DNA of 32,000 bases from NCBI RefSeq assembly GCF_000020025.1, contig NC_010628.1, positions 5,700,001 to 5,732,000 on the forward strand, read 5' to 3'. The position numbers and the translations under genes were made by a program. Source of the stretch: Nostoc punctiforme PCC 73102. GTDB taxonomy: Bacteria > Cyanobacteriota > Cyanobacteriia > Cyanobacteriales > Nostocaceae. Under the pieces are notes generated by a model, which ran no database searches, had not been told where the DNA came from, and worked only from the letters and a program-made list of their open reading frames with translations. Positions 4,225 to 21,149 of the stretch are shown in pieces. Positions within the stretch are counted from its first letter, which is position 1. Every line of letters starts with the position of its first letter.

Positions 4225-5700
4225 ATGCAATTACAATCGAAAAATCATTTACGGCGGCGGGGTGCGACTCTGACGGCTCAAGGCTCAAGGAAACTCAATC
4301 AGGCAAAAGCTCAGTTAGAAATTGAGCAAAACTTTAAGCGATACACTCTCGAAGACTTTAGTGAGAAGACAGGTTTAACCCCCAATACTCTCAGCAAGGT
4401 CTTTAATGGCTCAGTAGGGGTCGATAAGCGAACCTTGGAGTGCTGCTTTAATGCCTTTAATATGACCTTATTAAAAGACGATTATTTCTATCTGGAGCCT
4501 CATCAAGACAATCTTGCCGAGATTGGCTTAATGTCGTCGGCTGAAGCCTGCGATCGCATCGAACCAGTATGCGATTCTCGCAGCAATGTAGGGCAAATCC
4601 ACAAAATGGAACGAACGCCAGACGATCTATACCCTCGTCTCTTAACTACACCAGGAGGGCAGATGCCCCTGGATTCAGTCTTCTACATTGACCGTCCTAT
4701 TCTCGAATCCCTCTGTTACGAAGCCATCCAGCAACCCGGTGCGTCGATCAACATCCGCGCCCCCAAGCAAATGGGCAAAACTTCCCTAATGACTCGCATC
4801 CTGGCTTACGCTAACTCCCAGGGTCATCACGCCGTTTCTGTGAACTTGCAACTTGCTAACGACGAGATTTTACAGAACCTAGAACGCTTCTTAAAATGGT
4901 TCTGTGCCAGAGTCAGTAAGCAGTTAGACTTGCCAAATGAAATTGCTAGTTTTTGGCATAATTCCTTGGGCAGTAAATCAAATACCACTGATTATTTCCA
5001 GGATGTAATCTTAACCAACCTCGATCGCGGAGTCTCTTCAAGAGAGCATTGCCCCCTAGTCATTGCGATCAATGAACTCAACCAGCTTTTTGCTTACCCC
5101 GACGTTGCTCGTGAATTTCTCCTACTTTTACGAACATGGTCTGAGCAAGGCAAAGAAGCCGATGCAGACATTAATCCTTGGTACAAGCTGCGATTGGTGA
5201 CGGTTCATTCTACTGAAATTCTCATGCCTTCCTCCATCGATCCCTCTCTCTTGAATACTGGGCTGGTTATTGAGTTACCTGAGTTTACCCCTGCTCAGGT
5301 GCAGGATCTAGCATATAGGTGCGAACAGGATATAACCTCGTCACAAACCCAGCGCCTGATCGCTCTGTTGGGGGGGCATCCCTATCGGTTGCAGTTAGCA
5401 TTTTATTACCTACAGCAGCAGACAATAACCCTAGAAGAACTCTTAGAAAATTCTGCGATCGCTACCGTCATCTATGCAGACCACCTAGAACAACAATGGT
5501 GGAACCTGCAACGATATCCCGATTTATTGCCATTGTTTACAGAAATCGTCAGACAATCAAGTCCTGTAGATTGCGATGCTATGCAAGGTTCCCAGTTGCA
5601 CAAAATGGGGTTAGTGCATCTGTACGATCTGAGGGCAAGTCTCGTCTGTGAGTTATTTCGTCCGTTTTTCTGCGATCGCCTGCTGCAAATCAACAGTTAG
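4225..5700 (+). CDS. HTH-like N-domain plus AAA-like (AAA_35 / PF14516-type) P-loop NTPase
   Basis: 491-aa ORF. Residues ~35-65 (YTLEDFSEKTGLTPNTLSKVFNG) look like a helix-turn-helix. FYIDRPILESLCYEAIQQPGASINIRAPKQMGKTSL contains the Walker A sequence APKQMGKTS in the context typical of cyanobacterial AAA-like domain proteins. The Walker-B-like sequence LVIAINELN has Asn where Asp is usual. Confidence 0.7.
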   Translation: MQLQSKNHLRRRGATLTAQGSRKLNQAKAQLEIEQNFKRYTLEDFSEKTGLTPNTLSKVFNGSVGVDKRTLECCFNAFNMTLLKDDYFYLEPHQDNLAEIGLMSSAEACDRIEPVCDSRSNVGQIHKMERTPDDLYPRLLTTPGGQMPLDSVFYIDRPILESLCYEAIQQPGASINIRAPKQMGKTSLMTRILAYANSQGHHAVSVNLQLANDEILQNLERFLKWFCARVSKQLDLPNEIASFWHNSLGSKSNTTDYFQDVILTNLDRGVSSREHCPLVIAINELNQLFAYPDVAREFLLLLRTWSEQGKEADADINPWYKLRLVTVHSTEILMPSSIDPSLLNTGLVIELPEFTPAQVQDLAYRCEQDITSSQTQRLIALLGGHPYRLQLAFYYLQQQTITLEELLENSAIATVIYADHLEQQWWNLQRYPDLLPLFTEIVRQSSPVDCDAMQGSQLHKMGLVHLYDLRASLVCELFRPFFCDRLLQINS

Positions 5701-6015: not shown

Positions 6016-8259
6016 ATGTATCGATTCCAGATCAGTGCATACACGCAAACAGGTGAATTCATCGGTCTGGTCGGTTCTACTCCAGAGTTGGGACTGTGGG
6101 AAATTAAAAAATGTATCCACCTACGTACAAGTGGCGATCGCTATCCTCTATGGTGGACAGATATTGAAATTCAAGAGTCAGGCGGTCAACACAGAGTTGA
6201 ATACAAGTACATCCGCTTCGATGCCAACGGCAATGCTCGATGGGAGAACTTACTAGATACAAACCGATGGATACTGATTGATTCTAAAGATCATTCCAGC
6301 ACAATTATTGTGGATGATGGTGCATTCGGTTATTTACAGCCTTACCCCTTTGGATACATTGAGAAGCCTGCTGTTAAAAAACCCCTGGATGAAGAGTCTA
6401 AAGGGTTAAAAATCGTAGTCATTGGCAGTTCCGTCGCATTAGGTCATAAAGCCTGGTTTTTGAAAGGTTGGGTCTGGTTGTTGGCACAGGCTTTAGAGCA
6501 AAAATATGGGCATCAACTGGTGAATGTATCGGAAGTGGGGGCCAATGTCAGCAGGACGATCGCTCGATTTCCCTGGTTTGTCACCCCAGAAAAACCAGAT
6601 ATTGTGATTATTGCCTTGTCTCTGGGCAACGAAGGGTTAGCCTACTGTTCCCCTCACGAACGGCGAGCAGTACAGCGACGGTTTGAAAGTGGCTTGCAGC
6701 AGTTGGTGAAAATGACGCGGGACATCGGAGCAATTCCGATTCTGGGAGGAGTCTATCCTAATGGCGACTATTCTCAGGAACATTACTGGCTGCTCCGAGA
6801 CACACACAACCGAATGCTAAGTTGGGATGTAGCTGTACTAGATTGGTTAGCAGCCGTGGATGATGGACAAGGACGATGGAAAGCGGGGACATCCTTCGAT
6901 CCGGCTCACCCGAACACAGTCGGTCATCGCCTTATGTATGAGCAGATCGACCAGCACTTATTCGACATCGACAAAGACGAATTGGCAAAAGAAAAACAAC
7001 GCTTCCAGCAACCGAATGAATTTGCCATCTACTTTGACAATGCTGGCTTTCATGTCTCTGTCTGTATCGAAGAGAAGCGTTTACGAATCGTTAATCCATC
7101 ACAATACAGTTACACGATCGCTCCCTATTGGCAAGAATTGCAGACTGCATTACAAAGTAGGGCTGGATTGATACCAGGTATCTACATTGCGAAGTCTGTC
7201 AAGCCAGGAACGCTCCCTTTCTTTGCCGTGCAAGAAGATGGTGCGATCGCAACTACAGTAAACATCCCCCCTGGCACAGACTTAGAATATAGCGCTGCCT
7301 TCAATCTCTTTTCGCCAAACAACTCACAAGTTTTGTTCTATGACGGGCATCTGGGGATTTTGCAAGCAGACGAACGCCACCTCTGGATAATCAACGAATC
7401 AGATAACGAGTACAATATCCAACCCATGTGGACAGAGGTTTGCAACGCCCTTAAAGCCATGCCATCGGGTGTTTATGAAGATCCGCTTCATCCCGACATT
7501 CCCTTTCGTACCATGATGATTGGCAAAGATGGGCTAGAAAGCCGGGTGAAAGCACCACCTAAGTCTGCGGTGTTTTTCCAATATAAATGTCAGTTATCGG
7601 ATATCAGCCGTGTGGCAATTCTTCCCCTTGGCGATCGCTGTGCCGTCCGTATGATGCTATATAAAATGGAGTACGATGGCCCCGCCTTTCCCTTTGATCT
7701 AACGCGCGCGACTAATATTGCAGATGTTGCAGATGCGATCGAAAACGGTTTTTATGATATGTGGAATCCTGCCTTGCTACACTACAGCCCCGATGCAGGG
7801 AGAATTTACCATAGTAAGTGGTCAGGTCTATCCTTTGCCCATGAAGTCGAGGAGGCAGACGATCCAAGCAACAATATGTCTCCCGTACATGAACGGATGC
7901 GGGTTCGATACACAGCACGTTCTGAAAGGTTTTGGTACGCATTGCAGCACTGCGATAAAGTACTTTTTGTTCGTACAGGAATTAGCGATCGCGGTGGTGT
8001 AATAGATTTAGTCAATAAGCTAGAAAAACAATGCCAGGGGAAGCCATTTCATCTCTTGCTTCTTTCTCCTCAAAGCGATGATGAGTTTTTAGACCTTCCC
8101 AATGTGCTGCACTACAATGTCGAGTTTAATCCCGATCGTATGTATGACGATTTGGGACACTGGATGTATTGCACAGAAGTCATGCGAGGAATTCTGGAAT
8201 CCCTTGGAGTGTCTAGTAAAAACCTCTTTTGGTGTCCGCCTAAAACACCGAAGGGGTGA
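6016..8259 (+). CDS. multidomain protein: CBM20 starch/glycogen-binding module, SGNH/GDSL hydrolase, duplicated unknown module, DUF1796 (putative papain-like cysteine peptidase)
   Basis: CBM20: GEFIGLVGSTPELGLWE...PLWW...VEYKYIRFDANGNARWE..NR. SGNH blocks: KIVVIGSSVALG, IALSLGNEG, DPAHPNTVGH. Internal duplication: LRIVNPSQYSYTIAPYWQELQTALQS versus LWIINESDNEYNIQPMWTEVCNALKA. DUF1796-like: ILPLGDRCAVRMMLYKMEYDGPAFPFDL. There is no signal peptide. Confidence 0.75.
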   Translation: MYRFQISAYTQTGEFIGLVGSTPELGLWEIKKCIHLRTSGDRYPLWWTDIEIQESGGQHRVEYKYIRFDANGNARWENLLDTNRWILIDSKDHSSTIIVDDGAFGYLQPYPFGYIEKPAVKKPLDEESKGLKIVVIGSSVALGHKAWFLKGWVWLLAQALEQKYGHQLVNVSEVGANVSRTIARFPWFVTPEKPDIVIIALSLGNEGLAYCSPHERRAVQRRFESGLQQLVKMTRDIGAIPILGGVYPNGDYSQEHYWLLRDTHNRMLSWDVAVLDWLAAVDDGQGRWKAGTSFDPAHPNTVGHRLMYEQIDQHLFDIDKDELAKEKQRFQQPNEFAIYFDNAGFHVSVCIEEKRLRIVNPSQYSYTIAPYWQELQTALQSRAGLIPGIYIAKSVKPGTLPFFAVQEDGAIATTVNIPPGTDLEYSAAFNLFSPNNSQVLFYDGHLGILQADERHLWIINESDNEYNIQPMWTEVCNALKAMPSGVYEDPLHPDIPFRTMMIGKDGLESRVKAPPKSAVFFQYKCQLSDISRVAILPLGDRCAVRMMLYKMEYDGPAFPFDLTRATNIADVADAIENGFYDMWNPALLHYSPDAGRIYHSKWSGLSFAHEVEEADDPSNNMSPVHERMRVRYTARSERFWYALQHCDKVLFVRTGISDRGGVIDLVNKLEKQCQGKPFHLLLLSPQSDDEFLDLPNVLHYNVEFNPDRMYDDLGHWMYCTEVMRGILESLGVSSKNLFWCPPKTPKG

Positions 8260-8278
8260 GAAATTAGAGAAAAGCGAT

Positions 8279-8488
8279 CGCATTTGTTACTTTGGCGTTC
8301 GCATTTGTTGATTTGGAGTTCGCATTTGTTGATTTAGCGATCGCATTTGTTGATTTAGCGATCGCATTTGTTGATTTGGCGATCGCATTTGTTGATTTGG
8401 CGATCGCATTTGTTGATTTGGCGATCGCATTTGTTGATTTAGCGTTCGCATTTGTTGATTTAGCGTTCGCATTTGCTATTTCGGCGAC
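8279..8488. repeat. tandem array of about 10 copies of a 21-bp unit (CGCATTTGTTGATTTGGCGAT), each central junction forming a HIP1 octamer
   Basis: Units start at 8279, 8300, 8321 ... 8468. Intact GCGATCGC occurs at 8337, 8358, 8379, 8400 and 8421, exactly 21 bp apart. Edge units carry GCGTTCGC or GAGTTCGC. The array fills the gap between two convergent genes. Confidence 0.95.
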
Positions 8489-8644: not shown

Positions 8645-9118
8645 CTACTCTCCCATTAGTTCGTAGGGTGTACAAAGGGTTGGCAACTCGTATCCGGCAT
8701 CAAGACTGATTTGGGCTAGCTTCTTCTGAATTTGAGCATTGGCAATATGCTTACAGTTCCACGTTAACAGATAGTCCAATCCGTAAACTGTAGCCACCGC
8801 AATATGAAGCGCATCATCAGCAGCTTTCGGTGGAAGACTACTTTTTGCAAGAAATTGTGCTGCTAAATTTTGAACAGCTTCACTTACTTCAAGCAAAGGA
8901 AAATCACGTACTATTTCAAGTCGCTTCGTTGCTATCTCTGTATCGCCTCGTGCTACTTCATCCAAAACCACTTGAGAAATGTAGAGCATAAACTGATAGC
9001 GACGTGTGTCCCACCATTCCCGCGTAGCTTCTAAATTAGCCATCAGGATCAAGTTGTTACTCGGTCTAGCAGTCAAGTAGCCAACAATACTGGTTTCAAT
9101 GTAAACAGTTTCGCTCAT
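8645..9118 (-). CDS. PIN-domain (VapC-like) protein
   Basis: 157-aa ORF. Acidic and polar positions are spaced as in PIN domains (YIETSIV near the N-terminus, LDEVARGD, ADDALHIAVA, LLTWNCKHI). A small translationally coupled partner gene follows it. Confidence 0.6.
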   Translation of the reverse strand: MSETVYIETSIVGYLTARPSNNLILMANLEATREWWDTRRYQFMLYISQVVLDEVARGDTEIATKRLEIVRDFPLLEVSEAVQNLAAQFLAKSSLPPKAADDALHIAVATVYGLDYLLTWNCKHIANAQIQKKLAQISLDAGYELPTLCTPYELMGE

Positions 9119-16594: not shown

Positions 16595-17164
16595 TTATTC
16601 AAAAACCACATCTTCGTAAAGTGATGCCATTGTTTCCTCAAAATCCACGCTGTTGAGTCGAAATGATTGATGTTCTGCTGTGTAGGATTGTAAAACCCAC
16701 AACCCTTGCTCATTGCGGCGAAAAGACTCGACTCGCTGACGTTTGGTATTAATTAAAACATATTCTTGCAGACTTTCCAGTGTTTGATAATCGGCAAATT
16801 TATCGCCCCGGTCAAAGGCTTCGGTAGAATTAGATAAAACTTCGACAATTAAACAGGGAAATCTTTTATAACCTGGCGTTTCTTGATCTCGTTGATCGCA
16901 AGTAACCATCACATCGGGATAATAAAAGCGATTCAGAGATTCAATTCGGGCTTTCATGTCAGCGATGTAAACACGACAACCAGAGCCGCGCACATGATTA
17001 CGGAGGAGAGATGCCAGGTTAAGAGCAATGGTAACGTGTGGATCAAGCGCTCCAGCCATTGCATAGATGTAGCCGTCGATATATTCATGCTTGATATTGC
17101 TCTGTTCCTCCATTTGGAGGTATTCTTCAGCAGTGAGGTAGTTTTGTTGGGGCGAGGCTATCAT
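16595..17164 (-). CDS. Uma2-family (DUF820) restriction-endonuclease-like protein
   Basis: 189 aa. LTAEEYLQMEEQSNIKHEYIDGYIYAMAG...PDVMV...LIVEVLS is the typical Uma2 pattern. Confidence 0.8.
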   Translation of the reverse strand: MIASPQQNYLTAEEYLQMEEQSNIKHEYIDGYIYAMAGALDPHVTIALNLASLLRNHVRGSGCRVYIADMKARIESLNRFYYPDVMVTCDQRDQETPGYKRFPCLIVEVLSNSTEAFDRGDKFADYQTLESLQEYVLINTKRQRVESFRRNEQGLWVLQSYTAEHQSFRLNSVDFEETMASLYEDVVFE

Positions 17165-17258
17165 ATTTTAAAGGTTTTATTGTGCCGATTTACTTGTGGC
17201 GATGCTTTAGGCGCAGTAGACTTTATAATCAGGTAAGGAACTTATGTAAGGAATCTGA

Positions 17259-17507
17259 ATGATGGCTAGTGCTACCATCAGCACTAAAGGACAAGTAACT
17301 ATTCCTAAAGAAATTAGAGATTATCTTAACCTTGATACAGGTAGTAAGGTTGATTTTGTCATTGATGAAAATGGAATAGTTAAATTAATTCCCTTGAATA
17401 TCTCTATCCAAAGTTTATCAGGGATTTTACACCGTCCGGGAATGAAAAGCGCAACTTTAGAAGAAATGGAAGCTGCAATTAAAGAAGGCTCAAGTGATTG
17501 GACTTGA
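17259..17507 (+). CDS. vapB: AbrB/MazE/SpoVT-type antitoxin (VapB-like)
   Basis: 82 aa. TISTKGQVTIPKEIRDYLNLDTGSKVDFVIDENG is a SpoVT-AbrB swapped-hairpin motif. It overlaps the start of a PIN remnant. Confidence 0.8.
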   Translation: MMASATISTKGQVTIPKEIRDYLNLDTGSKVDFVIDENGIVKLIPLNISIQSLSGILHRPGMKSATLEEMEAAIKEGSSDWT

Positions 17508-17610
17508 CACAAATATTTTAGTGCAATACTTGACAAAAGATGATGAAAAGCAGTGGGAGCAAGCTGCTAAAATTATCGACGGGGTAGAGCAATGTTTCAC
17601 AACCACATAA
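17494..17610 (+). pseudogene. vapC: truncated PIN-domain toxin (vapC remnant, 38 codons)
   Basis: A GTG at 17494 overlaps the vapB 3' end. The product VIGLDTNILVQYLTKDDEKQWEQAAKIIDGVEQCFTTT* has the PIN N-terminal signature (GLDTNILV.YL..DD). It stops after 38 aa, where a PIN domain needs about 130, and it stops exactly where the repeat flanking hicAB begins. Confidence 0.65.
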
Positions 17611-17662
17611 TAGCGTAGGCGTAGCCCGTCGTAGACATCGCTTGTCGATTTACGCTTTGTAG
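17596..17662. repeat. left copy of the direct repeat flanking hicAB (carries a 21-nt insertion)
   Basis: TTCACAACCACATAATAGCG[21-nt insert]ATCGCTTGTCGATTTACGCTTTGTAG aligns with 18147-18195 (TTCACAACTCATAATAGCGATCGCTTGTAGATTTACACTTATTTTCTAG). The insert splits the HIP1 octamer that is intact in the right copy (18163-18170). Confidence 0.75.
17613..17642. repeat. GC-rich 30-nt repeat (pair B, left arm)
   Basis: GCGTAGGCGTAGCCCGTCGTAGACATCGCT. The reverse complement of 18196-18225 matches 29 of 30 positions. Confidence 0.85.
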
Positions 17663-17857
17663 TTAAAAATTAGGTAATAAACCTGCTTGTTTACATATTT
17701 CATTAGCAGTAATACGATCAATGGTACGATGACGTTTTACAGGAAGAGTTTTTATCTCATTAGTATAAATTGAATGATTTCCTCCTTCCCTTAATAAATA
17801 AAAGCCATTTTGCTCTAAGTATTTAATTAGCTCTTTTCGCTTGACTGACACACTCAA
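17663..17857 (-). CDS. hicA: HicA-family mRNA interferase toxin
   Basis: 64 aa. KRKELIKYLEQNGFYLLREGGNHSIYTN is typical of HicA/YcfA. It overlaps the hicB stop by 4 nt. Confidence 0.85.
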   Translation of the reverse strand: MSVSVKRKELIKYLEQNGFYLLREGGNHSIYTNEIKTLPVKRHRTIDRITANEICKQAGLLPNF

Positions 17858-18072
17858 ACCTCTATAGGAATTTGTTCGAGCAAAGAACCGCCTGTGGGAA
17901 TTTCTTTATTTTGTTGACGATAGGCAAGAACCATTTCTTTGGTTGCATCTTGTAACATAGCTCTACATTCTTCTATGGTTTCTCCTTCTGTGATGACTTC
18001 TTGCCATTCAATAAGTTGTCCCATATATCCGCTATTAGTTTTTGTATATTTTGCAGTGTATGTAATTAACAT
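17854..18072 (-). CDS. hicB: HicB-family antitoxin (short form)
   Basis: I prefer the ATG at 18072 (MLITYTAKYTKTNSGYMGQLIEWQEVITEGETIEECRAMLQDATKEMV...). The 25 extra codons in the ORF track (start 18147) extend into the flanking repeat and look non-coding. Confidence 0.75.
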   Translation of the reverse strand: MLITYTAKYTKTNSGYMGQLIEWQEVITEGETIEECRAMLQDATKEMVLAYRQQNKEIPTGGSLLEQIPIEV

Positions 18073-18146
18073 TGCTATGTTTGTGAAGATAATTATATGA
18101 TTTATCGTAGCTGATTTTTTGTTGTGGGAGACATTGCTCTTCATCA

Positions 18147-18195
18147 TTCACAACTCATAATAGCGATCGCTTGTAGATTTACACTTATTTTCTAG
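18147..18195. repeat. right copy of the direct repeat flanking hicAB
   Basis: See 17596-17662. It contains an intact HIP1 at 18163-18170 and is followed immediately by the pair-B right arm. Confidence 0.75.
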
Positions 18196-18225
18196 AGCGA
18201 TGTCTCCGACGGGCTACGCCTACGC
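18196..18225. repeat. GC-rich 30-nt repeat (pair B, right arm, inverted)
   Basis: AGCGATGTCTCCGACGGGCTACGCCTACGC. It is complementary to 17613-17642 at 29 of 30 positions. Confidence 0.85.
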
Positions 18226-18294
18226 CAGCTTTTGGCCTAATAATATACCAAAATAAATGCGTAAATTACTAAAATGAGTAAGCAAACTGGGGTT

Positions 18295-18550
18295 TGAGAA
18301 AGAAAAGCTGCTTTTGCTTGCGTAAAACACTAAAATAAGAAACTAAAAGCTGCTTTTGTTTGTAGAAAACACTAAAATGCGAGATTAAAAGCTGCTTTTG
18401 AAGAAGTAAAAGCTGCTTTCGTTTGTGGAAAACACCAAAATGCGAGATTAAAAGCTGCTTTTGGAGAAGTGAAAGCTGCTTTCGTTTGTGGAAAACATTA
18501 AAATGCGAGATTAAAAGCTGCTTTTGAGAAAGTAAAAGCTGCTTTTGCAT
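18295..18550. repeat. tandem array with a 63-bp period built from 21-nt modules around the near-palindromic core AAAAGCTGCTTTT
   Basis: The core occurs at 18303, 18345, 18387, 18408, 18450, 18471, 18513 and 18534, giving spacings of 42, 42, 21, 42, 21, 42 and 21. The inter-core segments resemble one another. Confidence 0.9.
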
Positions 18551-18677
18551 AAGTAATCAGGCATTTTTACTTAACTCAATATGAATTTCAGTCTAGGCGA
18601 CACCTTTCATTTGGAACGGTACGCGATCGCGATCGCGCTTTTTAGTTTGATCGCGGTAAGCTTTGCACAAAACTAGC

Positions 18678-21149
18678 TTATTCTTGATTTGGGGGGAGGC
18701 GATCGCGAAGACTTGCCAAATTTCTACGCACACTAACAGTATTAGGATGATCTGCACCTAACCGAGGCTCTAAAATATCTAATGCCTGCATATACAACGG
18801 TTCGGCTTCGCTGTATCTGCCTTGGGAGTAGTAGAGATACGCTAGGTTGTTGAGACTTTGTGCGGCATCTGGATGTTCTTCACCCAGCAGCTTGCACCTG
18901 AGTGCCAAAGCTTGGATGTAAAGGGGTTCGGCTTCGCTGTATCTGCCTTGGGAACGGTAGAGTGCCGCTAGGTTGTTGAGACTAGTTGCGACATCTGGAT
19001 GTTCTTCACCCAGCAGCTTGCGCCAGAGTGCCAAAGCTTGGATGTAAAGGGGTTCGGCTTCGCTGTATCTGCCTTGGGAGCCGTAGAGTGCCGCTAGGTT
19101 GTTGAGACTAAGTGCGACATCTGGATGTTCTTCACCCAGCAGCTTGCGCCAGAGTGCCAAAGCTTGGATGTAAATGGGTTCGGCTTCGCTGTATCTGCCT
19201 TGGGAGTCGTAGAGATACGCTAGGTTGTTGAGACTAGTTGCGACATCTGGATGTTCTTCACCCAGCAGCTTGCGCCTGAGTGCCAAAGCTTGGATGTAAA
19301 TGGGTTCGGCTTCGCTGTATCTGCCTTGGGAGTCGTAGAGATACGCTAGGTTGTTGAGACTAGTTGCGACATCTGGATGTTCTTCACCCAGCAGCTTGCG
19401 CCTGAGTGCCAAAGCTTGGATGTAAATGGGTTCGGCTTCGCTGTATCTGCCTTGGGAGTCGTAGAGATACGCTAGGTTGTTGAGACTAGTTGCGACATCT
19501 GGATGTTCTTCACCCAGCAGCTTGCGCCTGAGTGCCAAAGCTTGGATGTAAATGGGTTCGGCTTCGCTGTATCTGCCTTGGGAGTAGTAGAGTCCCGCTA
19601 GGTTGTTGAGACTAAGTGCGACATCTGGATGTTCTTCACCCAGCAGCTTGCACCTGAGTGCCAAAGCTTGGATGTAAAGGGGTTCGGCTTCGCTGTATCT
19701 GCCTTGGGAACGGTAGAGTGCCGCTAGGTTGTTGAGACTAGTTGCGACATCTGGATGTTCTTCACCCAGCAGCTTGCGCCTGAGTGCCAAAGCTTGGATA
19801 CAAAGAGGTTCAGCTTCGCTGTATCTGCCTTGGGAGTAGTAGAGATACGCTAGGTTGTTGAGACTAGTTGCGACATCTGGATGTTCTTCACCCAAGCGCT
19901 TTTTAGTGACTTCTAAACACTGCTCATACCAAGGTAAAGCTTGGCTATATAAACCTTGACCATTATAAAATCTAGCGTTGCCGATGAAAGGCCCAACTAA
20001 ATCATCATCGCTGACGTATTGAATGAGATGATTCGCTACTTCAGCTATATGAGGAATAGTGGGAGAAACGGCAGTGATTTGCTCAAGGGTAGACGATTCA
20101 GGAATATCTTGGGCAACTGCTACCATTACCCGACAAAAAGAAAGCTTTAATTCCTCCCCCTTATCTAAACTTGTAAGCTTATATTGAAAAAACTCCCGTA
20201 GCAGTGGATGCAGTTGATAAATTCCCTCACCTTTGCGCTGAACTAAATGCAGATTCAAAAAGCATTCGTCTCTAATTTCTTCTAAATCTTCGGTATCTTC
20301 TTCTGGTAAACACTGTTCCACCAACTTCCAAGGTATAGGTGCTGTGGCAAATAAACTCAATAAACAACCCAGTTGCTTATCGCTGTCCTCTAATTCTTGC
20401 CAACTCAACTCAAAAGCTGCTAACACACCTCGCTGTGCTGTCATGTCGGTTTCCGACTTAGATTTAGAGAGTGAACGCTCATCTATTCCCTTGTTCTTCA
20501 ACCGCCGCAACATCTCTGTTAAAGATAAATCTTGTTTCCGCGCCAGATAGCGCCCGACTAATTCCACACCTAAAGGTAAATATCCCAGCCATTTACATAA
20601 CTGATTTGCTAAAGCTAATTCTCGCTCAATTCGCTCTGGTGTTTCTTTGAGTAAAGACTTTAATAACTCCAGCGCCGCTTCTGGTTGCAGCACATCCAAA
20701 GATAACTTTGCAATGCGTCCCAACTTCTGGCGCGTAGTCATCAACACTTTAAACCGAGAAGATGACGACGGTAGATAAGGCTTAACTTGCTCGTAGTTGC
20801 TGACATCATCCAGCACCAGCAGCACCTCACCCTCACGCCAATGCCGCCAACAGTATTGCACTTGCGCGAGTAAATCAAAATCTTCTGGCGGCTTTAAATC
20901 AAGCTGCGTTCTGGCAAACTGCACAACTTGAATGCCCACATCCCCAGTTTTTGCAAGCAACCAGCAAAGCCCACCGTTGTATGTGTTGCGGTGCTGGATG
21001 GCATATTGCAGGGCGAGTTCTGTTTTACCAACTCCACCCATGCCAGAAATAGCTGCGATCGCAACTGGTTTATTATCCTGCATAAGTTGGTGAAGATTTT
21101 GCAATTCTTCTTCACGTCCGACAAATTCCACCACCCCACTCAAGGGCAA
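18678..21149 (-). CDS. NB-ARC STAND NTPase with C-terminal TPR array (NLR-like); the 5' end is undefined, see the in-frame TGA finding
   Basis: Walker A GMGGVGKTELA, Walker B VLLVLDDV, KVLMTTR, GYLPLGVELVG (GLPLA-like), then nine LGEEHPD...42-aa TPR units. The only start offered is a TTG at 21149. The frame stays open upstream as far as a TGA at 21210-21212. Confidence 0.9.
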   Translation of the reverse strand: MPLSGVVEFVGREEELQNLHQLMQDNKPVAIAAISGMGGVGKTELALQYAIQHRNTYNGGLCWLLAKTGDVGIQVVQFARTQLDLKPPEDFDLLAQVQYCWRHWREGEVLLVLDDVSNYEQVKPYLPSSSSRFKVLMTTRQKLGRIAKLSLDVLQPEAALELLKSLLKETPERIERELALANQLCKWLGYLPLGVELVGRYLARKQDLSLTEMLRRLKNKGIDERSLSKSKSETDMTAQRGVLAAFELSWQELEDSDKQLGCLLSLFATAPIPWKLVEQCLPEEDTEDLEEIRDECFLNLHLVQRKGEGIYQLHPLLREFFQYKLTSLDKGEELKLSFCRVMVAVAQDIPESSTLEQITAVSPTIPHIAEVANHLIQYVSDDDLVGPFIGNARFYNGQGLYSQALPWYEQCLEVTKKRLGEEHPDVATSLNNLAYLYYSQGRYSEAEPLCIQALALRRKLLGEEHPDVATSLNNLAALYRSQGRYSEAEPLYIQALALRCKLLGEEHPDVALSLNNLAGLYYSQGRYSEAEPIYIQALALRRKLLGEEHPDVATSLNNLAYLYDSQGRYSEAEPIYIQALALRRKLLGEEHPDVATSLNNLAYLYDSQGRYSEAEPIYIQALALRRKLLGEEHPDVATSLNNLAYLYDSQGRYSEAEPIYIQALALWRKLLGEEHPDVALSLNNLAALYGSQGRYSEAEPLYIQALALWRKLLGEEHPDVATSLNNLAALYRSQGRYSEAEPLYIQALALRCKLLGEEHPDAAQSLNNLAYLYYSQGRYSEAEPLYMQALDILEPRLGADHPNTVSVRRNLASLRDRLPPNQE
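18762..19895 (-). repeat. nine tandem 126-bp (42-codon) near-identical TPR-coding units
   Basis: CATCTGGATGTTCTTCACCC recurs at 18866, 18992, 19118, 19244, 19370, 19496, 19622, 19748 and 19874, exactly 126 bp apart. The central units look identical at nucleotide level by eye. Confidence 0.95.

Follow-up and report, generated by a model that had tools for sequence, protein, structure and literature searches.

Nostoc punctiforme PCC 73102 carries one small state of a variable gene-cassette island that is common to dozens of Nostoc genomes. The island lies between a gene for an NB-ARC/TPR protein and a Uma2-aspartate kinase gene pair, within a 32,000-nt stretch of DNA that was analysed as a whole (NC_010628.1, positions 5,700,001 to 5,732,000 of the forward strand; hereafter the window, from whose first nucleotide all positions are counted). 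Here it holds a hicBA toxin-antitoxin (TA) operon next to vapB and a truncated vapC, the remains of a second TA pair. The cassettes of the island are separated by a short junction module that is delimited by the octamer HIP1 (GCGATCGC). Comparison of loci shows that the vapC remnant is the scar of a deletion and that a pair of inverted repeats in the window results from two insertions of an SDR5-like element, and it makes it probable that the cassettes have been reshuffled by recombination between module copies.

A first-pass annotation of this DNA, made from the sequence alone, had offered a different account. It proposed that a hicAB cassette had landed in vapC, or had replaced its 3' part, and that the direct repeats around hicAB resembled attL/attR sites or a long target duplication. 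All of the sequence features that it described are present where it had placed them. Their meaning changes when the same locus is viewed across other genomes.

A HIP1-bounded module at cassette junctions

The direct repeats occupy positions 17596-17662 and 18147-18195. Once a 21-nt insert is removed from the left copy, the two match at about 37 of 41 positions in a manual alignment (about 90% identity), and a repeat search finds an ungapped core of 26 nt at 85% identity. The right copy contains an intact HIP1 at 18163-18170; the left copy adjoins the hicA stop codon and has no upstream HIP1. On the minus strand of the window, the consensus of the repeated unit reads GCGATCGC - TCTAnnnnAn AAGTGTAAATCnACAA - GCGATCGC. 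The module therefore consists of one HIP1, 26 nt that include ..AAGTGTAAATCnACAA, and a second HIP1. Directly after this second HIP1, information content collapses and the different cassette types diverge. The hicBA cassette of the window is thus flanked by two modules, and these are what was seen as direct repeats.

The module is often followed by a second, semi-conserved block (..ATGnGGTTGTGAATGATGG..). Its pattern, GTT[GT][TA]GA..TGA (for example TATTATGTGGTTGTGAATGATGG), is found after the module in 23 of 71 distinct contexts, compared with 0.3% of random 45-mers. In one locus (L047), the module and a complete second block (cgctattatgtggttgtaaatgatggtgttgtcaaagcgatcgc) form a tandem unit, and the block also serves as the leader of hicBA cassettes. 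The additional similarity of about 16 nt between the two window copies represents the start of this block, with the right copy running on into the hicBA leader and the left copy having been cut and fused to vapC codon 35. Three other accounts of the sequences around this junction were dropped. The 14-16 nt beyond the left module could be filler templated from the right copy, or the leader of a deleted second hicBA copy, but neither reading is needed, since several cassette classes have this block behind the module and it stands alone in L047. A 10-nt inverted match between the hicB leader (AGAGCAATGT) and vapC (ACATTGCTCT) was considered as a template-switch signal, but in every genome each of the two is native to its own cassette.

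A profile built from 47 module copies in other genomes has exactly two significant matches in the window, at 18166-18195 (minus strand, E = 4e-8) and 17637-17667 (minus strand, E = 5e-6). A degenerate third copy upstream of Uma2 (about 17183-17215) is unsupported by this search. Scanning one genome for each of 185,579 species with the pattern AAGTGTAAATCNACARGCGAT recovered the module core in 49 stretches, all of them from Nostoc or Desmonostoc. Most of these stretches carry NB-ARC, Uma2/aspartate kinase, hicBA or vapBC markers of the same island, or of a paralogous island that adjoins an NB-ARC gene 52-54% identical to the first (tblastn with marker proteins). The remaining stretches have the same cassette genes or the same left flank, with one exception (L067). 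In L067, the module copy (7526-7546) lies beside a phage-like region encoding a 911-aa repetitive protein and structural-looking open reading frames (ORFs), with no island marker genes nearby.

The module is absent from 72,556 plasmids searched, and Rfam yields no credible match for it. When the syntenic loci from a HicB search are included, there are 77 module copies in 55 loci, with one to three copies per genome. Eighteen loci contain at least two copies, and these are always in direct orientation on one strand. The repeat is thus tied to cassette boundaries, as the first-pass annotation had supposed, rather than being a generic intergenic repeat: apart from the copy in L067, its copies go with the island, its paralogue, or their cassette genes or left flank, and it is significantly matched only twice in the window.

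Cassette content and order

Sequences that follow the module sort into recurrent classes, each of which represents a cassette. The cassettes are about 0.5-1.3 kb long, with the module between them always on the same strand. According to Pfam assignments, most are type II TA pairs, comprising hicBA, vapBC, two kinds of DUF433 + DUF5615/Mut7-C pair, a PIN gene with a 72-aa partner, a second HicA-like + UPF0150 pair, and parDE. The few cassettes of other kinds encode an NAD-binding dehydrogenase, a 290-aa protein without a Pfam match, and an AAA-type ATPase. The first-pass annotation had suggested a search for other cassettes bounded by the same repeats; vapBC, DUF433/DUF5615 and others are bounded in this way. 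For example, the DUF433a/DUF5615a cassettes of L022, L028 and L034 all have exactly 779 nt from module to module, and the vapBC cassette of L066 has 799 nt.

The orientation of cassettes relative to the module is invariant (hicBA in 23 of 23 cases, vapC in 22 of 22, the second hicAB type in 20 of 20 and DUF433a in 9 of 9), but their order is permuted. Relative to hicBA, DUF433a comes before in four loci and after in three, the second hicAB type before in seven and after in three, and vapBC before in one and after in eight. Differential loss from a single ancestral order could therefore not have produced these arrangements. The island is an array in which cassettes of variable content and order are each bounded by a directly repeated site.

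The array also contains remnants of genes. Across genomes, vapC stubs cover residues 1-35, 1-37, 1-45, 1-54, 60-129, 95-129, 99-129 or 105-129, and a C-terminal stub of the 72-aa gene follows hicA in about 15 loci.

An old hicBA cassette beside a scarred vapC

At least eight NCBI Nostoc assemblies encode an identical HicB of 72 aa at this locus. The syntenic order is NB-ARC/TPR gene, hicB, hicA, Uma2, aspartate kinase, protein kinase and CorA. The slot between hicA and Uma2 is variable. It is empty in L013 and L020. It holds a stub of the 72-aa gene in L011, L014, L017 and L019, an intact 129-aa vapC with vapB in L016 and L018, an extra DUF433/DUF5615 pair in L012, and a different vapC stub (47 aa) in L015.

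These loci confirm that vapC is truncated in the window, since an intact 129-aa PIN gene occupies the same place in orthologous loci. Codons 1-35 of the remnant (17494-17598) are homologous to the 129-codon gene, and residues 1-35 of VapC from L016 align with them at 86% (tblastn); the last codons and the stop (17608-17610) are repeat sequence. The hicA and vapC stop codons of L016 and L018 are separated by the spacer CTACAAAGTGTAAATCAATAAGCGATTGCT, with no 21-nt insert. The core of the left repeat copy is therefore native to this spacer. The window's spacer has the 21-nt insert and then TATTATGTGGTTGTGaa, which runs directly into vapC codon 35, and about 290 nt of vapC are missing compared with L016 and L018. 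No other vapC fragment is present in the window, and none lies beyond the right copy. The alignments thereby identify the vapC stub as the scar of a deletion of about 290 nt or more, which destroyed the toxin and orphaned vapB.

The same scar is found in L022, where the junction (module, 21-mer, ..TATATGGTTGTGAAACATTGCTC) is the same as in the window. Between this junction and hicA, L022 carries a stub of the 72-aa gene, a module, and a DUF433a/DUF5615a cassette. On the left side of its left module the window resembles L016 and L018, and on the right side of the same module it resembles L022. Such a mixture is the pattern expected from exchange at the module. More than 20 sequencing runs contain a protein identical to the window's VapB, with the truncated gene next to it as in the window.

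The window, L015 and L018 carry the right repeat copy, a block of about 41 nt (plus the 21-mer), upstream of hicB. L012, L014, L016 and L017 lack this block and still have hicBA in place; their flank runs GCCGAAAGCT/ATTATG. The hicBA leader is kept in all syntenic loci, with or without a module upstream. Third-codon identity to the window averages 0.894 for hicBA across 18 loci and 0.879 for the flanking Uma2 gene. Because the two values are alike, hicBA is as old at the locus as its flank, and so an old resident. A recent transfer of hicBA, which might be read from its nucleotide identity being above that of the aspartate kinase and Uma2 genes, was rejected on the same figures; the higher overall identity reflects purifying selection.

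These comparisons bear directly on the proposal that a mobile hicAB inserted into vapC or replaced its 3' part, in which the direct repeats would be attL/attR or a long target duplication, and the ends of the element would be the 30-nt inverted pair. Its attraction is that the repeats bracket hicBA, that one copy adjoins the hicA stop codon, and that vapC is truncated exactly at the repeat. It is nevertheless contradicted by the other loci and hardly credible. The same hicBA sits beside an intact vapC, across the same spacer, in L016 and L018, and it persists without the right copy in four loci. L022 separates the vapC junction from hicA by another cassette, the third-codon divergence of hicBA is like that of its flank, and the missing part of vapC is not found on the far side. 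The same module flanks unrelated cassettes, and the 30-mer is a dispersed element that also occurs on 13 plasmids.

Other kinds of decay and insertion are seen at these loci. In two genomes (L054:2788-2940 and L018:1487-1639), hicA is cut to 50 codons and hicB is intact, so that toxin decay with retention of the antitoxin is not limited to vapC in this island. Between the last module and Uma2, six genomes (L017, L028, L029, L034, L045 and L065) carry a hairpin element of about 70 nt with 22-nt arms (AAGACGCGATAAATCGCCGTCT ... AGACGGCGATTTATCGCGTCT; L017:3609-3690), which is absent from the window.

The inverted pair as a dispersed element in split HIP1 sites

The arms of the 30-nt inverted pair, at 17613-17642 and 18196-18225, are complementary at 29 of 30 positions, with 0 matches expected from shuffles. 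Both 30-mers consist of GCG, 21 nt, and ATCGC. In the left copy this splits HIP1 at 17613-17641. The right arm is likewise a HIP1 split after its third base, a point that the first-pass annotation had overlooked.

The 21-mer is widespread in Nostoc. Counted at no more than three mismatches, it has 45 distinct copies in 480 kb of Nostoc DNA, 33 of them with exact split-HIP1 flanks and 39 within one mismatch of these. Copies are scattered across loci outside the island and occur at 21 places on 13 plasmids, all from Nostoc; from the segment 17594-18230, the only matches to Nostoc plasmids are two pieces of 30-35 nt that contain the 21-mer. Conserved HIP1 sites are found both empty and filled. 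The HIP1 of the hicA-vapC spacer is empty in L016 and L018 and occupied in the window. Of the module upstream of hicB, the window and L015 have the element in the distal HIP1, and L018 has it in the proximal one. More than 10 other genomes also show the arrangement AAGCT GGCG-element-ATCGC TCTAGAAAAG-module. Ten independent short-read Logan contigs with an identical vapB all end at 17637-17640, at the edge of the 21-mer.

This behaviour is that described for SDR5, a small dispersed repeat of the Nostocaceae, which is reported to insert between the third and fourth bases of HIP1 (PMC4390886; PMC5861425). The 21-mer shares with SDR5 its position in split HIP1 sites, dispersal in chromosomes and plasmids of Nostocaceae (here Nostoc), insertion in either orientation, and filled and empty sites in conserved sequence. 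No feature of the window element contradicts membership, which is judged here by insertion behaviour and distribution, although SDR5 would account for the 30-nt inverted pair only, and not for the cassette repeats. Because the 21-mer is dispersed, sits in split HIP1, and is missing from the same HIP1 sites in other genomes, the two arms are separate insertions of a 21-nt element and not cassette ends.

The element is itself subject to rearrangement and insertion. In L011 and L019, an insert of about 22 nt splits it (GTCTACGACGG/TCACTGAGCGCAGCCGAAGTGC/GGGCTACGCCTA), in L012 and L068 a longer insert does so, and in L051 part of it is tandemly duplicated (nested or altered copies at L011:5900-6000, L012:7290-7430 and L051:6750-6790). 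The 21-nt element also occurs within apparent coding sequence: in L037 (67-549), a copy lies inside a 160-aa ORF, where it is read as ..MSTTGYAYA...

How the array may be reshuffled

The favoured explanation is that cassettes are gained, lost and reordered through recombination between module copies, either in cis (by deletion, duplication, or excision and re-insertion) or with incoming DNA. RecA-type homologous exchange, helped by the HIP1 sites, would be the most likely route, and occasional illegitimate deletions would leave gene stubs such as that of vapC. Homologous exchange is favoured because a Chi-like role in recombination has been proposed for HIP1 in Synechococcus PCC 7002 (bioRxiv 10.1101/2024.09.10.611283), because there is no recombinase gene nearby, and because the ragged gene stubs speak of imprecise events. 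In agreement with the first-pass annotation, no integrase or transposase is found in the window, nor is a REP-associated tyrosine transposase (RAYT). No recombinase domain was detected in its ORFs of at least 90 aa, and the ten syntenic loci L011-L020 have no recombinase among their called genes. Of the earlier suggestion that TA cassettes move here by a small-repeat-dependent route, one part is retained, in that cassettes are bounded by a specific small repeat and have apparently been reorganised through it; the jump of hicAB into vapC is abandoned. A role for Uma2 as a nuclease acting on the array is also set aside, as the paralogous array of L037 ends at mraY without Uma2 and the link is therefore not required.

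Several observations weigh against recombination between modules or limit how far it can be taken. The evidence for it is entirely comparative, with no event observed directly. Not every cassette junction has a recognisable module, and in L012 and L013 some junctions are a single HIP1 with nested small inserts, or have a different HIP1-bounded spacer. For RecA to act efficiently, the module core of about 40 nt is short. All contigs from near-identical strains have the arrangement of the window, so that very recent turnover is not apparent. The genome scan relied on an exact pattern from this locus, and diverged family members elsewhere would have been missed.

A dedicated site-specific process is the most obvious competitor. 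The module, or its HIP1 ends, would then be an attC- or dif-like site acted on by a recombinase or nuclease encoded elsewhere, with cassettes circulating as circles that carry one module. The module boundary is sharp, coinciding in every cassette class with the final base of HIP1; cassettes are discrete and of constant length between modules; their polarity is fixed and their order permuted; and upstream of hicB there are alleles with and without the module. The intact module, as single-stranded DNA, is also predicted to form a hairpin with a 10-bp stem (-12.3 kcal/mol, z = -6.0), and evidence for site-specific recombination at HIP1 is cited in the literature (PMC4390886). All of the array features listed here are, however, also expected from homologous exchange between direct repeats. 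The hairpin stem is broken by the 21-nt insert in both window copies and is not maintained by compensating changes in other copies, where the first HIP1 is often degenerate while the second is intact. Many cassette remnants are ragged within genes, which is atypical of clean site-specific exchange, and no recombinase has been found in the window or the annotated syntenic loci. On balance, we consider this process unlikely. A broader version treats the HIP1-bounded module as the recombination site of a previously unrecognised, integrase-less shuffling system that reorders TA and defence cassettes downstream of NLR-like NB-ARC genes. Its enzyme might be encoded elsewhere, or a HIP1-directed nuclease or methylation-dependent machinery might be at work. 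We put this forward only tentatively, as a minority possibility.

Alternatively, the module could be a selected cis element at operon ends, such as a terminator, an insulator or a protein-binding site, in which case the variability of the island would stem from differential loss only. Its hairpin potential fits such a role, as does its position directly behind vapC, DUF5615a and further leftward toxin genes, where it follows the stop codon. But the orientation of the module follows the array and not the genes, as it lies upstream of the hicBA and PIN146 operons and downstream of others. No T-run follows it, a terminator scan does not detect it, and some genomes have no module upstream of hicB although the leader is unchanged. 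With cassette orders permuted beyond what loss alone would give, a purely regulatory element is very unlikely to be the explanation, and recombination between module copies remains the preferred one.

Relationship to known systems

Integron arrays, and the clusters of attC sites lacking an integron-integrase (CALINs), provide a close structural likeness. Both they and the Nostoc island consist of small, variable cassettes, many of them TA pairs, with a directly repeated, hairpin-forming site after each cassette, shuffled order and fixed polarity. In Vibrio superintegrons, many cassettes are likewise TA pairs. However, there is no intI in the Nostoc window or among the genes called in the syntenic loci. 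By inspection, the Nostoc module is conserved in its centre and ends in palindromic HIP1 copies, whereas attC sites are conserved at the ends and variable in the centre, and no GTTRRRY core is visible in the module. The Nostoc cassettes are two-gene operons with both gene orientations represented, and the arrays are short, at one to six cassettes.

The dif modules of Acinetobacter plasmids, which depend on Xer recombinases (PMC6449649, PMC13141974), are similar in being small, often TA-encoding units that lie between short repeated sites and are shuffled without a recombinase gene inside or beside them (in Acinetobacter, between replicons). They differ in that their 28-nt XerC-6-XerD sites alternate in orientation, whereas all 77 Nostoc copies are direct. 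No dyad of XerC site, spacer and XerD site is seen in the Nostoc module by inspection, and the Nostoc array is chromosomal and confined to one island.

Like miniature inverted-repeat transposable elements (MITEs) and REP (repetitive extragenic palindromic) elements and REPINs, the module is short, with palindromic ends, hairpin potential, and presence and absence alleles at one site. Unlike these elements, it is limited to one to three copies per genome, in one orientation, in one island and its paralogue. No target duplication and no RAYT or transposase partner is seen.

The module also recalls HIP1 as a recombination-promoting motif, since HIP1 lies at both ends of the module and cassette types diverge exactly at it. 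HIP1 is found everywhere, with 46 copies in the 32-kb window compared with 0.2 expected, whereas the specific 26-nt spacer between two HIP1 copies is confined to the island.

Anatomy of the window

The features of the locus are collected in Table 1. The hicA and hicB genes overlap by 4 nt, and the HicA toxin with an overlapping HicB antitoxin of the UPF0150 fold identifies the operon as a type II hicBA pair. In syntenic loci, hicA is called as a gene of 62 aa. The vapBC pair falls short of a type II system in the window, where the antitoxin is intact and the toxin is reduced to codons 1-35 of 129; the intact form is found in L016, L018 and L012. The second HIP1 of the right module is divided into GCGAT (18197-18201), 21 nt (18202-18222) and CGC (18223-18225).

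Table 1. Coordinates of the cassette island and its borders in the 32,000-nt window of NC_010628.1
Feature	Position	Strand	Description
Uma2-family gene	16595-17164	-	Conserved right border of the island, followed by the aspartate kinase gene; Pfam Uma2, E 2e-42
vapB	17259-17507	+	82 aa; AbrB/MazE-type antitoxin, intact, now orphaned; Pfam MazE_antitoxin, E 1e-10
vapC' (PIN toxin remnant)	17494-17610	+	38 codons, beginning MIGLDTNILVQYL...; covers PIN profile positions 3-34 of 120 only
Truncated start of second junction block	17596-17612	-	Minus strand TATTATGTGGTTGTGaa; fused to vapC codon 35 at the deletion junction
Left junction module	17613-17662	-	Core AAGCGTAAATCGACAA and HIP1 split by the 21-nt insert; nhmmer E 5e-6
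21-nt SDR5-like micro-element, first copy	17616-17636	+	TAGGCGTAGCCCGTCGTAGAC, between bases 3 and 4 of HIP1
hicA toxin gene	17663-17857	-	64 aa from TTG, or 62 aa from GTG at 17851; Pfam HicA_toxin, E 9e-14
hicB antitoxin gene	17854-18072	-	72 aa; Pfam UPF0150, E 1e-6
hicBA leader	18073-18162	-	Distal 16 nt (18147-18162, minus strand TATTATGAGTTGTGAA) common to the left repeat copy
Right junction module	18163-18225	-	HIP1 18163-18170, 26-nt spacer 18171-18196, second HIP1 split; nhmmer E 4e-8
21-nt SDR5-like element, second copy	18202-18222	-	One mismatch; opposite orientation to the first copy
Left flank of cassette array, conserved	18226-18300	-	..TTTGGTATATTATTAGGCCAAAAGCT; precedes the first module
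NB-ARC/TPR STAND NTPase gene	18678-21149	-	Conserved left border of the island; Pfam NB-ARC, E 3e-17, and TPR repeats

Several other sequences in the window are repetitive. The NB-ARC/TPR gene contains 8.7 copies of a 126-nt unit, corresponding to a 42-aa TPR unit, at 18799-19894 with 94% nucleotide identity, which suggests recent expansion or homogenisation of its sensor repeats. Between this gene and the first module, tandem repeats with a period of 63 (also 42 and 21) surround the near-palindrome AAAAGCTGCTTTT at 18303-18556. They differ in copy number and sequence among syntenic Nostoc loci and produce a spurious 93-aa ORF. The only terminator-like hairpin near the island, at 18622-18637, consists of two overlapping HIP1 copies (CGCGATCGCGATCGCG) followed by CTTTTT. 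It is on the strand opposite to the NB-ARC gene, just past that gene's 3' end. Further away, a 10-copy tandem array of the 21-nt unit GCGATCGCATTTGTTGATTTG (8274-8487; 92% matches), in which each unit opens with HIP1, lies downstream of a gene for a 747-aa CBM20/GDSL-lipase protein.

Additional conflict-type genes in the window encode a 157-aa PIN-domain protein (8645-9118) and a 491-aa protein with a helix-turn-helix and an AAA_35 ATPase domain (4225-5700). The latter is 38% identical to the AAA-type ATPase that neighbours cassettes in the islands of other genomes.

Implications for Nostoc and for HIP1

For annotation, the 38-codon PIN ORF should be treated as a pseudogene stub and vapB as an orphan antitoxin, and the 21-nt element can be expected to break short-read assemblies. 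The behaviour of the 21-mer as SDR5 is already known; no account of such a cassette array in Nostoc was found in the literature searched.

Integrons are rare in the cyanobacterial phylum. The Nostoc island gives TA and defence genes an integron-like organisation.

No octamer is more over-represented than HIP1 in cyanobacterial genomes, and debate over what it does has gone on for about 30 years (PMC5861425). In the island described here, pairs of HIP1 appear to mark the exact points at which TA cassettes have been exchanged and reordered in dozens of Nostoc species. The interest of the finding lies in this tie between HIP1 and natural junctions of recombination. The island offers a natural and testable substrate for the idea that HIP1 promotes recombination. 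If the module were the recombination site of the integrase-less system that is put forward above as a minority possibility, this would constitute natural evidence for HIP1 as a recombination signal.

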